Positions 1,540 through 3,839 of a stretch of DNA of 64,000 nucleotides are shown here, one piece after another. Location: positions 6,558 to 70,557 of the forward strand of contig JBAZEH010000003.1 in assembly GCA_041653955.1 (NCBI GenBank), read 5' to 3'. The DNA is from Candidatus Omnitrophota bacterium (lineage in GTDB: Bacteria; Omnitrophota; Gorgyraeia; Gygaellales; Profunditerraquicolaceae). Position 1 is the first letter of the stretch. Each line of letters begins with the position of its first letter. The position numbers were made by a program, and so were the translations under genes. The notes under the pieces are model-generated. The model had not been told where the DNA came from. It made no database searches and worked only from the letters and a program-made list of their open reading frames with translations.

Positions 1540-2359
1540 AGGCGATTTCGGGCACATATTTATTCTGGCCGGTTCTTTGAGATATTCTGGCGCGGCGCTG
1601 TTATGCGCCGGGGCAGCTATGCGTTCGGGAGCGGGGCTTGTTACTTTAGGGATACCGGAGTCTATAGCGCATCCGATAATAAAAATAAAGCCAAGAGAGG
1701 TGATGTTATTACCTTTGCCCGCTACGCGGGGAGGGGCGTTTGGCCTTCGCGGTTATCAGAAAATAAAAGATTTCGTCAAGAAGGGGGCCGATATAATGGT
1801 GGTCGGCCCCGGCCTTACGAGTAACGGTTCGGCGCTGGCTTTGGCGCGCAAGGTAATATCGCGTATAGGTAAGCCGATGGTCATTGACGCGGATGGCCTG
1901 AACGCTTTAGCGGGGCATTTAGGATTATTGGCCGCTAAACGCCGCGCGCTATATGCCAAGGTCCTGACGCCTCATCCGGGCGAGATGTCGCGTTTAACCG
2001 GTATCAGCGCCAAAAAGATACAGTCGGACAGAAAAGGCATTGCCGGGGAATTCGCCAGAAAATATAAGGTGACCGTAGTTTTAAAAGGGCATAATACCGT
2101 GGTCGCGGATCAAGAGGGGCGCGTGCATATTAATAATTCCGGTAATCCCGGGATGGCTACCGCGGGAAGCGGAGATGTTTTGACGGGCATGATCGCCGCT
2201 CTTTTAGGCCAGGGCTTAAGCCCTTTTGAGGCGTCAAAATACGCGGTTTACCTGCATGGATCAGCCGCAGACTTAGCCGCGGAAGAAAAAACCGAGATAG
2301 GATTGATAGCTTCTGATATAATAGATAAGATCCCGGAAGCGATAAAGAGGTGCTCTTAG
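1493..2359 (+). CDS. ADP-dependent (S)-NAD(P)H-hydrate dehydratase (YjeF C-terminal domain type)
   Basis: RRRPDAHKGDFGHIFILAGS...GNPGMATAGSGDVLTG motifs of the YjeF_C carbohydrate-kinase-like fold. Confidence 0.8.
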   Translation: MRLPTPLLRRRPDAHKGDFGHIFILAGSLRYSGAALLCAGAAMRSGAGLVTLGIPESIAHPIIKIKPREVMLLPLPATRGGAFGLRGYQKIKDFVKKGADIMVVGPGLTSNGSALALARKVISRIGKPMVIDADGLNALAGHLGLLAAKRRALYAKVLTPHPGEMSRLTGISAKKIQSDRKGIAGEFARKYKVTVVLKGHNTVVADQEGRVHINNSGNPGMATAGSGDVLTGMIAALLGQGLSPFEASKYAVYLHGSAADLAAEEKTEIGLIASDIIDKIPEAIKRCS

Positions 2360-2371
2360 ATATTTAGTTGC

Positions 2372-2444
2372 GCCGGCGTAGCTCAGTTGGCAGAGCAGCT
2401 GTTTTGTAAACAGCGGGTCGGGGGTTCAATTCCTCTCGCCGGCT
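2372..2444 (+). tRNA. tRNA-Thr (anticodon UGU)
   Basis: Manual cloverleaf: acceptor GCCGGCG/CGCCGGC, D arm GCTCAGTTGGCAGAGC, anticodon stem GCTGT/ACAGC with loop TTTGTAA, T arm GGGGGTTCAATTCCTCT. Confidence 0.85.
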
Positions 2445-2469
2445 TTTGAAAATAAGGAAGTTTGTGAAT

Positions 2470-2756
2470 GGGTAGGTACCCAAGTGGCCAAAGGGGGCAG
2501 ACTGTATAAAAGCAGCTTCATGCCGAAAGGCATGATGAAAAAGTAGGTGAATTCAGGGAACCCCTTGATTTAACTTAAAACCAAGGGCAATCCTGAGCCA
2601 AGCCCGCAAAAGAATACGCGGGAAGGTGCAGAGACTAAGCGCCTACCACCTGTCGGCGATGCCAAGGTGAAGAGATAGTCCAAGCCTTAAGGTAACTTAA
2701 GGGCACTTGAAATCTGCTGCGCTTGCGCTTCAGAGGTTCGAATCCTCTCCTGCCCA
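2470..2756 (+). tRNA. tRNA-Tyr (anticodon GUA) interrupted by a 204-nt group I intron in the anticodon loop; exons 2470-2505 and 2710-2756
   Basis: 5' half GGGTAGGTACCCAAGTGGCCAAAGGGGGCAGACTGT matches bacterial tRNA-Tyr up to anticodon position 35. 3' half AAATCTGC + long variable arm TGCGCTTGCGCTTC + AGAGGTTCGAATCCTCT + CCTGCCCA completes the cloverleaf (acceptor GGGTAGG/CCTGCCC). Confidence 0.85.
2506..2709 (+). mobile_element. group I self-splicing intron (IC3-like, Azoarcus/Anabaena tRNA-intron type) inserted between anticodon positions 35 and 36 of tRNA-Tyr
   Basis: 5' exon ends in U (2505) that can wobble-pair with G2512 of an internal guide GCAG (P1: ACUGU/GCAG). P2 hairpin CATGCCgaaaGGCATG. 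Core motifs CAGAGACTA (2629-2637), GAAGAGATAGTCC (2669-2681) and GAGCCAAGC (2595-2603) match the R/S and P7 elements of small tRNA group I introns. Last intron nt is G2709 (omega G). Confidence 0.8.
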
Positions 2757-2943
2757 TTTAAATTCTCCTTATTGGAGATTTGAATAGCACTTTCATCAGC
2801 GACAGCTATGCGATAAGCCGGGCAGTGAGTGAAAGTGCATACCACCAGTTTGTTCTTTGCGACAGCAAAACAGCCAGCGGTAGAGCATGTTATCGCGCAG
2901 CGCCCGGAGCTAAGAGGTGTTGTGTCGGCGTGCGCTAATTAGC

Positions 2944-3014
2944 GCGGGAGTAGTTCAGTGGTAGAACAATAGCCTTCCAAGCTATATATGGGGGTTCGAT
3001 TCCCCTCTCCCGCT
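2944..3014 (+). tRNA. tRNA-Gly (anticodon UCC)
   Basis: Acceptor GCGGGAG/CTCCCGC, D arm TAGTTCAGTGGTAGAACA, anticodon stem ATAGC/GCTAT with loop CTTCCAA, T arm GGGGGTTCGATTCCCCT. Confidence 0.85.
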
Positions 3015-3068
3015 TAAACTTAATTTTAATGTAAAACCGCAACTATCACATAGCGAGGTAAAAAGACA

Positions 3069-3839
3069 ATGATAGAAAGAGAATTCCTGGAACCCGTATT
3101 TATTGATGCCTTTGACCTGGATGATGCGTGGTTCCAGTGCCTGGCGAGGATACTTGATAAAGGGCACGTTTATACCATAACCCGAGGCAGTTATGAAGGC
3201 CAGAGGCGCCTGGAGTTTGATCTTGCGGTGATCAGGGCGAAGAAACCCTCGCACCAGATCATACCGATAATACCTGAAGGCATGAGCATACCGGCCCCTA
3301 CGGATATGGATTATATACAGGGTTACCTGAGTTATCTGATGACCGGAACAAAAACGGAAACAGAAGATTACACATATGGAGAGCGCCTCGTTGACCCAAG
3401 GGTGAAGATAAAAGAGAATATTGACGGAAAGAGTATGCTTAAAGAGATGCCCCTTGAAGTCAACCAGATAGAAGAGGTGATAAATATATACAAGAAACAG
3501 GGGCATGGCACTAATCAGGCGATAATGGAGATAGGGATGCCTTCAGATATAAAATTGGACGATCCGCCGTGCCTGCGCCTTATAGATACGAGGGTGCGTT
3601 ATGGCAAGCTTCATTTTATCCTGTATTTCCGTTCCTGGGACCTGTGGGGAGGTTTTCCTTCAAACCTCGGGGGATTGCAGCTGGTAAAGCAGTATATGGC
3701 CGAAGAGATAGGAGTGGAAGACGGTGAGATGGTGGCTTTAAGCAAAGGCCTGCATCTTTATGAGTATAGCTGGGACCTGGCAAAGTTAAGGACAGGGAAA
3801 CAGGATCCCGTTTCGCTTCAGGGTAAGGGAGCAAAGTAA
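3069..3839 (+). CDS. thymidylate synthase (ThyA) family protein, divergent
   Basis: C-terminal half aligns to ThyA core: PPCL (catalytic Cys) ...GKLHFILYFRSWDLWGGFPSNLGGLQLVKQYMAEEIG vs E. coli PPCH...[35 protein letters not shown]. Confidence 0.6.
   Translation: MIEREFLEPVFIDAFDLDDAWFQCLARILDKGHVYTITRGSYEGQRRLEFDLAVIRAKKPSHQIIPIIPEGMSIPAPTDMDYIQGYLSYLMTGTKTETEDYTYGERLVDPRVKIKENIDGKSMLKEMPLEVNQIEEVINIYKKQGHGTNQAIMEIGMPSDIKLDDPPCLRLIDTRVRYGKLHFILYFRSWDLWGGFPSNLGGLQLVKQYMAEEIGVEDGEMVALSKGLHLYEYSWDLAKLRTGKQDPVSLQGKGAK

Follow-up and report, generated by a model that had tools for sequence, protein, structure and literature searches.

The locus considered here, at positions 2470-2756 of a 64,000-nucleotide stretch of Candidatus Omnitrophota DNA (hereafter the window), carries a tRNA-Tyr(GUA) gene in which an insertion separates anticodon positions 35 and 36. 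The question it raises is what kind of element interrupts the gene, and whether a mature tRNA could be made from it. Judging from sequence, we consider it very likely that the locus is an Omnitrophota tRNA-Tyr(GUA) gene interrupted between U35 and A36 by an ORF-less group I ribozyme (positions 2506-2709), which would be removed by the standard splicing pathway. The element is genuine, but introns of its kind have been described before.

The gene is part of a tRNA-Thr/tRNA-Tyr/tRNA-Gly cluster (Table 1) and begins 25 nt after the end of tRNA-Thr. Reading of the sequence bore out a preliminary description of the locus, which had proposed a tRNA-Tyr(GUA) split after nucleotide 35 by a 204-nt element. 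The 5' exon ends in ...GCAGACTGT, with U35 at position 2505, and the 3' exon opens with AAATCTGC; CCA is not encoded at its 3' end. Pairing in the acceptor, D and anticodon stems is 100% across 41 homologues. ARAGORN missed the gene when run without intron search, recovered it with a 204-nt intron, i(38,204), when intron search was enabled (-i), and returned a canonical 83-nt tRNA-Tyr(gta) cloverleaf for the joined exons. A second tRNA-Tyr gene was not found by ARAGORN within the 64-kb window. The 187-nt spacer between tRNA-Tyr and tRNA-Gly (positions 2757-2943) gave zero Rfam matches, and no conservation was seen there in relatives beyond two short matches. A promoter and terminator scan of positions 2200-3200 yielded nothing exceeding shuffled sequences, and the "terminators" predicted in this region are hairpins of the tRNAs and the intron.

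Table 1. Positions in the window of the tRNA cluster, the exons and the structural parts of the intron
Feature	Positions	Strand	Basis or remark
tRNA-Thr(UGU), upstream neighbour	2372-2444	+	ARAGORN; Rfam tRNA, 65.9 bits
tRNA-Tyr 5' exon: acceptor stem, D arm, anticodon stem 5' half, loop C32 U33 G34 U35	2470-2505	+	
P1: exon CUGU 2502-2505 with internal guide GCAG 2512-2515; loop AUAAAA	2502-2515	+	
Group I intron, 204 nt	2506-2709	+	Rfam RF00028; U-1/omega-G; intron-less alleles
P2 hairpin, 7 bp, GAAA tetraloop L2 at 2525-2528	2518-2535	+	
P3 5' strand GUAGGUG; partner 2640-2646	2543-2549	+	
P4 (2553-2558/2591-2596) and P5 (2562-2567/2582-2587), loop L5	2553-2596	+	
P6 (2597-2598/2626-2627) and P6a (2603-2607/2618-2622)	2597-2627	+	
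P7 5' strand GAGACUA, A2632 bulged	2631-2637	+	invariant, 41/41
P3 3' strand CGCCUAC; closes P3/P7 pseudoknot	2640-2646	+	
P8 (2647-2651/2665-2669)	2647-2669	+	4/5 pairs compensatory
J8/7 AAGAGA	2670-2675	+	
P7 3' strand UAGUCC	2676-2681	+	invariant
P9.0 (AAG 2682-2684/CUU 2706-2708) enclosing P9 (2685-2691/2696-2702), GUAA tetraloop L9 2692-2695	2682-2708	+	
Omega-G, final intron nucleotide	2709	+	invariant G right before AAAUC, 41/41
tRNA-Tyr 3' exon: A36 A37 A38, anticodon stem 3' half, long variable arm, T arm, acceptor stem, discriminator A2756	2710-2756	+	
tRNA-Gly(UCC), downstream neighbour	2944-3014	+	ARAGORN and Rfam

The assignment to group I, also proposed in the preliminary description, is supported by a covariance search, by a P3-P7 core with covariation and by intron-less alleles with the exact junction. 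The Rfam model RF00028 (Intron_gpI) matched at positions 2495-2702 with 99.7 bits (gathering score 50; E = 1e-24) over its full length (model positions 1-253); this alignment stops at G2702, which is distinct from omega-G. The three core motifs described beforehand are present (GAGCCAAGC at 2595-2603, CAGAGACTA at 2629-2637 and AAGAGATAGTCC at 2670-2681), as are the P2 hairpin and the terminal G, the intron ending in ...CACTTG. There is no ORF inside the 204 nt, the longest open frame being 38 codons, and the intron therefore does not qualify as one that encodes its own homing endonuclease. Relatives are as short as 184 nt, and the Azoarcus model ribozyme, at about 205 nt, is about the size of the window intron.

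A P1-P9 fold with the P3/P7 pseudoknot was drawn by hand, proved complete, and its pairing was counted over 41 homologues. In total, 90.4% of cells were paired, versus 32.6-50.9% when the partners were slid, and both-sided changes occurred at 52 of 81 pairs; neither value was reached by any of 500 shuffles. Among the 27 Omnitrophota-type sequences 98.2% of cells were paired, with 36 of 81 pairs compensatory. No variation was seen among the 41 sequences in P1, including its U•G pair, in P7 or at omega-G. All four P1 pairs, which are the only pairs on the exon side, are thus found in 41/41, among them the wobble U2505•G2512 at the 5' splice site that had been proposed between the upstream exon and the guide. 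Both-sided changes were seen at all seven P2 pairs, and compensatory pairs numbered 4/6 in P5, 5/5 in P6a and 6/7 in P9. P3 is 100% paired in the 27 Omnitrophota-type sequences with two compensatory pairs, P4 is 100% paired with three across both intron lineages described below, and P6 is 100% paired. At the middle position of P9.0, 20 sequences have AU, 12 CG, seven UA and two UG. Two nucleotides (AG) lie between P7 and P3' in the window, and no P10 helix could be drawn. In the window copy itself, none of the helices P1-P9 is disrupted. In the alignment, the L2 tetraloop type co-varies with a receptor motif in P8: relatives with a GAAA L2 carry a CCUAAAG...AUGG-type tetraloop-receptor motif, and the window, which has CCUGUCGG... 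instead, is the sole GAAA-L2 copy without such a motif. A2671 in J8/7 is unique to the window in the same alignment, 26 relatives having U.

Complete intron-bearing tRNA-Tyr homologues, their fold kept through compensatory changes, number 11 in metagenomes and at least 40 in genomes, the latter a lower bound from a scan whose pattern picked up some 70 ordinary tRNA-Ser(CGA/GGA) genes as well, mostly of Chloroflexota. The pattern of intron 3' core plus tRNA-Tyr 3' exon matched none of 100 shuffles of the window, which, together with the recurrence in at least 40 complete genes, argues that the arrangement is not due to chance. Viral contigs gave three pattern matches and zero intron-bearing tRNA-Tyr genes. 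The flanks of the window are syntenic with metagenome-assembled genomes labelled Omnitrophota at 67-70% nucleotide identity.

From this fold we infer a standard group I pathway. The intron would fold into P1-P9, exon nucleotides C32-U35 pairing with the guide GCAG to form a short P1 topped by U2505•G2512. An exogenous guanosine, bound in P7, would attack after U2505; G2633-C2680, by its position the counterpart of Tetrahymena G264-C311, is presumably the guanosine-binding pair. The terminal G2709, positioned by P9.0, would next occupy the guanosine pocket, and the freed 3'-OH of U35 would attack after G2709, joining ...CUGU to AAAUC... and restoring a 7-nt anticodon loop. The 3' exon is probably held by the 5-bp anticodon stem between the exons, which is compatible with P1, by analogy with Anabaena pre-tRNA-Leu, in which the anticodon stem reportedly does so. 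Removal of the intron would leave the uninterrupted tRNA-Tyr(gta) that ARAGORN recognized in the joined exons, and 41 intron-less genes show the exact junction.

The preliminary description had listed tRNA-Leu, -fMet, -Ile and -Arg as the known bacterial hosts and had called a tRNA-Tyr host with a 35/36 site unusual. The list is outdated, as 21 host/site types of bacterial tRNA introns have been described, including "Tyr.4Ug" with the seed Mba143.Tyr.4Ug (Williams 2020 preprint, bioRxiv 10.1101/2020.01.27.920355), and a tRNA-Tyr 35/36 intron is also reported from Doudnabacteria GCA_016699995.1 (Nakagawa et al. 2026, PMC13011429). A tRNA-Tyr host with this site is thus uncommon but not new. The window intron shares with these two the tRNA-Tyr(GUA) host and insertion after the fourth anticodon-loop base, a CUGU/GCAG P1 with U•G, the terminal G, a length of ~190-210 nt, P2 and P9 hairpins with tetraloops, and P9.0. 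It differs in host phylum, Omnitrophota rather than Patescibacteria, and in its core, which reads GUAGGUGAAUUCAGGGAA ... AAUCCUGAGCCAAGCC ... ACUAAGCGCCUAC versus GGGAUAACGGUGAA ... AAUACCGUGGGAAC ... ACUAGAUACC in the Patescibacteria Tyr type. Conserved columns give identities of 47% between the window and Mba143.Tyr.4Ug and 53% between it and the Doudnabacteria intron (L006), whereas identity within the Omnitrophota type is 66-88%. These identities, together with two distinct core types in the alignment, indicate that the Omnitrophota introns are clearly different at the sequence level and lie outside the lineage of the published Tyr.4Ug seed and the Doudnabacteria intron.

The intron had also been called IC3-like, a label that fits as far as architecture goes. 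IC3 introns are said, after Michel and Westhof and later work, to possess P2, to lack P7.1/P7.2 and P5abc, and to have GNRA loops L2 and L9 with receptors in P8 and P5. The window fold has a GAAA L2, a GUAA L9 and only 2 nt between P7 and P3', and is without the P8 receptor motif. With the Azoarcus pre-tRNA-Ile(CAU) intron (the IC3 model, seed Aol6.Ile2.5Ug) it shares a minimal ~205-nt architecture, the GAAA-loop P2, a short P9 with a GNRA loop, the absence of P7.1/P7.2, and the motifs GAGCCAAGC, GGUGYAGAGACUA and AUAGUCC. It differs in host tRNA, in site (36/37 in Azoarcus) and in the sequence of P3/P3' and J8/7, with 51% identity on conserved columns. Azoarcus and most relatives of the window have a CCUAAG/UAUGG-type P8 receptor, which the window itself lacks. 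Identity on conserved columns is 51-56% to three IC3 seeds and 51-62% to the non-IC3 seeds Asp.4Ug, Phe.2Ug, Leu.1Ug, Asn.4Ug and Lys.2Ug. Across 12 published seeds, neither local alignment scores nor conserved-column identity clearly favoured IC3 over the P7.1/7.2-bearing types or the reverse. [quoted passage not shown] Three members of the Omnitrophota family (L016, L018, L078) and L089 have an insertion at this very place. [quoted passage not shown]

The window intron is a member of an Omnitrophota-wide family, carried by some lineages but lacking in very close relatives of these. Syntenic metagenome loci numbered 53, of which 12 carry the intron and 41 do not, the latter reading uninterrupted through ...GACTGTAAATCTG.... 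Sister tips on a tree of neighbouring genes differ in whether they carry the intron, and the intron-less locus L199 and the intron-bearing locus L171 have identical exons and flanks that are 95-96% identical. The exact empty site is thus known from alleles in near-identical neighbourhoods.

An unannotated ORF abuts the tRNA-Tyr gene in many intron-bearing relatives (at least 27 related loci adjoin one) and in 0/41 intron-less loci. It is free-standing, about 200 codons long and directly 5' of tRNA-Tyr in Omnitrophota and Patescibacteria relatives, its homologues flanking both intron lineages in these two phyla; in Omnitrophota the frame reads through the 5' exon and stops inside the ribozyme core. 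The product comprises an HTH domain at its N terminus and one domain whose predicted fold is LAGLIDADG-like, which makes it a candidate free-standing homing endonuclease. Searches of Pfam and NCBIfam returned weak HTH matches only, a profile search of PDB sequences matched the HTH part alone, and Foldseek against PDB and BFVD returned nothing significant. The ORF is missing in 10 of the 28 complete Omnitrophota-type copies outside the window (one has upstream sequence too short to judge). In the window itself, tblastn with the L171 ORF found no homologue across the 64 kb, and the spacer between tRNA-Thr and tRNA-Tyr is only 25 nt; the window copy therefore has no collaborative-homing endonuclease as a neighbour and, having no adjacent ORF, is non-autonomous.

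The adjacent ORF of many relatives, with its LAGLIDADG-like predicted fold, probably drives the patchy distribution of the intron. More tentatively, at a little under an even chance, we read the window intron as what is left, minus its endonuclease, of a two-part mobile element undescribed for cellular tRNA genes, whose ORF product would cut intron-less tRNA-Tyr as a homodimer. The anticodon stem-loop DNA of intron-less tRNA-Tyr is palindromic (GCAGA-CTGTAAA-TCTGC), with the intron site at the dyad. A homodimer of the ORF product would cut this DNA, repair would copy ORF and intron together, and the intron would render the carrier allele immune to cutting. As in a collaborative-homing pair, the window's relatives have an ORF-less intron with a gene immediately outside it that encodes an HTH domain and a LAGLIDADG-like predicted fold and is absent from every intron-less allele. 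The differences from such a pair are that the host is a cellular tRNA gene and not a phage protein gene, that the candidate ORF abuts or overlaps the 5' exon, and that the window has no ORF.

The same distribution could have arisen from one ancient insertion followed by many precise losses, with no part for ORF-driven homing; this bears on origin only, and we judge it unlikely though far from negligible. It would fit the occurrence of the intron in one and the same gene and syntenic setting at loci with no more than 67-70% identity between their flanks, the copies without the ORF counted above, and a nuclease that is a candidate by its predicted fold. It sits poorly, however, with alternation between sister tips, including the pair with nearly identical flanks, with an ORF found only beside intron-bearing genes, and with homologous ORFs beside both intron lineages in two phyla.

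Two further alternatives concern the window copy itself. Were the intron a decayed, splicing-dead relic, the gene would be a disrupted pseudogene and a second tRNA-Tyr elsewhere would do the work. The unique A2671, the lack in P8 of the receptor-like motif found in GAAA-L2 relatives, the absence of an adjoining homing-endonuclease-like ORF and a view of the genome confined to 64 kb all lend this some weight. An A at the same J8/7 position is, however, the norm in Patescibacteria-type introns and IC3 seeds, all helices are intact, all invariant core positions are retained, the exons are intact and fold as tRNA-Tyr, and the window has yielded no other tRNA-Tyr gene, so that we regard decay as very improbable. 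On paper the intron could also lie one nucleotide further downstream (36/37), given the A on either side, and this is where ARAGORN -i puts it; ARAGORN and tFind do the same for the Doudnabacteria gene in the supplementary table of PMC13011429. This placement would, however, put A at -1 and A at omega, whereas 35/36 gives a U-1 paired with G2512 in the invariant P1 and an invariant terminal G, and the authors of PMC13011429 settle on 35/36; the shifted site has hardly any likelihood in our view. The mature tRNA-Tyr is identical under either placement.

[quoted passage not shown] To our knowledge, what goes beyond the literature is the Omnitrophota core, clearly different from that of Patescibacteria Tyr.4Ug, and the contrast of 12 loci with and 41 without the intron. 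Standard tRNA finders miss the gene, so that such a genome wrongly seems to lack tRNA-Tyr and scores as less complete. The current view is that ORF-less tRNA introns rarely move (PMC13011429), and it would need revision if the two-part mobile element is real. The exact empty sites among near-identical strains form a clean natural presence/absence series, and together with the intron-linked ORF they make tRNA intron mobility in uncultured small-celled bacteria directly testable.

The tRNA-Tyr(GUA) gene of the window is split between anticodon positions 35 and 36 by a group I intron. The Rfam group I model RF00028 was covered whole by positions 2495-2702, at 99.7 bits (gathering score 50; E = 1e-24), and helices P1 to P9, including the expected pseudoknot made by P3 and P7, were drawn by hand and their pairing then checked on the window sequence, so that the intron proposed in the preliminary description is real. 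The Rfam alignment ends at G2702, the end of P9, and the real terminal G follows seven bases later. ARAGORN did not report the gene in default mode; with its intron search it found a 204-nt intron, but set one base further 3', and the joined exons gave a canonical 83-nt tRNA-Tyr(gta). CCA is not encoded at the 3' end of the gene. tRNAscan-SE 2.0 is, according to its own paper, not designed for group I intron detection (PMC8450103).

Features of the intron-bearing tRNA-Tyr gene and its flanks (window positions)
Feature	Position	Sequence	Remarks
tRNA-Thr(UGU)	2372-2444		one flank of the tRNA-Tyr gene
tRNA-Tyr 5' exon	2470-2505	GGGTAGGTACCCAAGTGGCCAAAGGGGGCAGACTGT	acceptor stem, D arm, 5' anticodon-stem strand, loop C32 U33 G34 U35
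Intron	2506-2709		204 nt between the two exons
P1	2502-2505 with 2512-2515		U2505•G2512 at 5' splice site
P2	2518-2524 with 2529-2535		L2 = GAAA
P3	2543-2549 with 2640-2646
P4	2553-2558 with 2591-2596
P5	2562-2567 with 2582-2587
P6	2597-2598 with 2626-2627
P6a	2603-2607 with 2618-2622
P7	2631, 2633-2637 with 2676-2681		A2632 bulged
P8	2647-2651 with 2665-2669
P9.0	2682-2684 with 2706-2708
P9	2685-2691 with 2696-2702		L9 = GUAA
omega-G	2709
tRNA-Tyr 3' exon	2710-2756	AAATCTGCTGCGCTTGCGCTTCAGAGGTTCGAATCCTCTCCTGCCCA	A36 A37 A38, 3' anticodon-stem strand, long variable arm, T arm, acceptor stem, discriminator A
tRNA-Gly(UCC)	2944-3014		other flank of the tRNA-Tyr gene

Open frames in the window intron reach 38 codons at most. 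P10 could not be drawn in it, with AUAAAA lying 5' of the guide sequence and the 3' exon beginning AAAUC. The 5-bp anticodon stem between the exons can coexist with P1, because P1 takes loop bases only, and would hold the 3' exon in place, as Zaug and colleagues reportedly found in 1993 for the Anabaena pre-tRNA-Leu. The window intron is very probably competent to splice.

In order to find related loci, a pattern composed of the 3' strand of intron P7, the junction G/AAATC and the T loop, which had no match in 100 shuffles of the window, was searched in one genome per species (GTDB), and at least 119 loci were obtained. About 70 loci among the matches listed were plain tRNA-Ser genes, false positives of the pattern. 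At least 40 were complete intron-bearing tRNA-Tyr genes, with introns of 184-290 nt located exactly at 35/36 in all, and at least four further tRNA-Tyr matches were cut or masked. An alignment of the window with 40 homologues displayed two intron types, one from MAGs labelled Omnitrophota, which includes the window, and one from Patescibacteria (Doudna-, Moran-, Magasanik-, Peri-/Peregrinibacteria and others). Across these 41 sequences, 90.4% of cells were paired in the hand-drawn structure versus 32.6-50.9% with partners slid, changes on both sides occurred in 52 of 81 pairs, and none of 500 shuffles reached the observed pairing and covariation values. Pairs were compensatory in P2 (7/7) and P9 (6/7), and the middle pair of P9.0 was AU (n = 20), CG (n = 12), UA (n = 7) or UG (n = 2); P1, P7 and omega-G were invariant. 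The Omnitrophota-type introns alone (27 sequences) had 98.2% of cells paired and 36 compensatory pairs. One locus in an Omnitrophota UBA MAG (L106; DCOU01000061.1, ~2950-3120, minus strand) was unusable for the comparison because the 5' half of its intron is a run of N.

Within the Omnitrophota type, the L2 loop and the P8 receptor appear to form a co-varying tertiary contact. A CCUAAAG...AUGG-like receptor motif is present in P8 of the 22 relatives whose L2 is GAAA, and P8 is a plain CCRUCC/GGAUG helix in the four with GUAA or GCAA (L040, L113, L120 and L171); the sole exception is the window, where a GAAA L2 is found with CCUGUCGG in P8. Position 2671 in J8/7 is A in the window only and U in all others of this alignment. 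We do not read A2671 as a defect, because A is normal at the equivalent position in the Patescibacteria-type lineage and in IC3 seeds.

The designation IC3-like holds for the architecture, which matches the small IC3 ribozymes; on the sequence side, IC3 and the options bearing P7.1/P7.2 are not told apart by identity on conserved columns. Three introns of a published seed alignment, named for host tRNA and loop site (Lys.2Ug, Asn.4Ug and Phe.2Ug), match the window in P3/P3' and J8/7 (GGUGAAUUC, ACUAAGCGCC; AUGAGAUAGUCC in relatives) and carry P7.1/P7.2. Only AG lies between P7 and P3' in the window and most relatives. Four tRNA-Tyr introns (L016:2705-3063, L018:3368-3700, L078:2086-2458 and L089:1987-2308) have ~35-40 extra nt there, which is where IA-type introns have P7.1/P7.2. 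L089 is also mixed in type, its intron core being Omnitrophota-like and its tRNA Patescibacteria-like.

Introns of this kind have been recorded before. The number of settings for bacterial tRNA introns rose from 4 to 21 with the study of Williams (bioRxiv 10.1101/2020.01.27.920355), the seed alignment of which includes a tRNA-Tyr intron inserted after loop base four, Mba143.Tyr.4Ug, with a core of Patescibacteria type. Nakagawa et al. 2026 (PMC13011429) reported 333 tRNA introns in 4,934 complete genomes, including 28 at 35/36, of which 25 were assigned to IA and one lies in the tRNA-Tyr of a Doudnabacteria genome. [quoted passage not shown] A full-text literature search for Omnitrophota and group I intron returned nothing beyond a match titled on ribosome biogenesis. 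The tRNA-Tyr 35/36 intron is already known as a kind, and no earlier description of this host phylum and intron lineage was found in the literature covered. The pattern search also matched just downstream of a group I intron (RF00028, 60.8 bits) at L098:7209-7418 (+) in Desulfogranum marinum DSM 2058, where the 3' exon is not that of tRNA-Tyr (anticodon-stem strand TCCGA) and ARAGORN found no tRNA; the site is probably that of a different tRNA with an intron, and the host is a cultured deltaproteobacterium.

Over its first 12 kb, the window is syntenic with eight loci of MAGs labelled Candidatus Omnitrophota at 67-70% nucleotide identity, sharing genes for NAD(P)H-hydrate dehydratase, a thymidylate-synthase-family protein, a PilZ protein and gpsA (names taken from Pfam) as well as the tRNA cluster. 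One window protein has an identical copy on a JGI metagenome contig. Spacers within the tRNA cluster vary, with 187 non-conserved nt in the window (2757-2943), ~7 nt in L079 and ~1.5 kb in L043. Contigs L028, L089, L103, L116 and L040 carry labels including Gammaproteobacteria, Planctomycetia, Draconibacterium and 'Patescibacteria group', yet by tRNA and intron sequence they fall among Patescibacteria or Omnitrophota, which suggests mis-binning or mislabelling. Two different tRNA-Tyr loci with introns come from a single Omnitrophota MAG (L042, JAZDFW010000092.1, 222-nt intron; L079, JAZDFW010000066.1, 206-nt intron), which reflects either two gene copies or two strains binned together.

For a sample unselected for the intron, metagenome contigs were searched using as query the thymidylate-synthase-family protein whose gene lies just downstream, giving 80 loci at 77-86% amino-acid identity. 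An Omnitrophota pre-tRNA profile detected 11 complete and one partial intron-bearing tRNA-Tyr genes on these loci and 41 uninterrupted genes at the same position, and in a neighbour-joining tree built from the marker protein the two states were interleaved. The clearest pair of loci, L171 and L199, has flanks 95-96% identical over >3.6 kb and identical exons; L171 has a 186-nt intron, and L199 lacks it and reads ...GACTGT/AAATCTG.... This comparison fixes the intron boundaries independently of any model, at the exact junction assigned in the preliminary description, and shows a recent gain or precise loss. Between its tRNA-Tyr and tRNA-Gly genes, L199 also contains 600 nt (L199:3285-3884) that are missing from L171.

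L171 in turn differs from L199 by an extra 621-nt segment between tRNA-Thr and tRNA-Tyr, with an ORF at L171:2457-3155. By tblastn, its homologues occurred only in intron-bearing loci: 17 intact and three cut, partial or decayed with Omnitrophota-type introns, and 10 and two, respectively, with the Patescibacteria type. None was intact (0/41), cut, partial or decayed in the intron-less loci, and none, intact or decayed, was found in the 64-kb window, whose intron copy is without an endonuclease partner. The ORF is always on the same strand as the tRNA. The Patescibacteria ORF mostly terminates 0-14 nt upstream of the tRNA. The Omnitrophota ORF has no stop before the tRNA and runs in a conserved frame through the 5' exon, where the tail WAGTQVAKGxRL recurs (e.g. 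L043:598-1335, L079:1213-1917), and through P1-P2 to a stop in the ribozyme core, often the UAG inside P3 (GUAGGUG), so RNase P cleavage or splicing would remove the stop codon from the transcript.

The ORF product has 531 homologues in the protein database, those named being hypothetical, with Omnitrophota as the NCBI name. Sequence methods detected only an N-terminal helix-turn-helix domain, which PHROGs related to the region of phage HNH endonucleases that binds DNA. An AlphaFold model (46 sequences, mean pLDDT 86) gave nothing significant in Foldseek against PDB and BFVD. The invariant motif MLYWAEG(T) fits, with moderate confidence, the end of a LAGLIDADG helix and its acidic residue. A one-domain enzyme of this type would function as a dimer at a symmetric target; this may be the DNA of the anticodon stem-loop, GCAGA-CTGTAAA-TCTGC, which is centred on the intron position. 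The arrangement of ORF and intron in the relatives resembles phage collaborative homing (PMC3984707). More interesting than the window intron itself are two features of its relatives, the polymorphism in intron presence and the linked ORF with its predicted LAGLIDADG-like fold.
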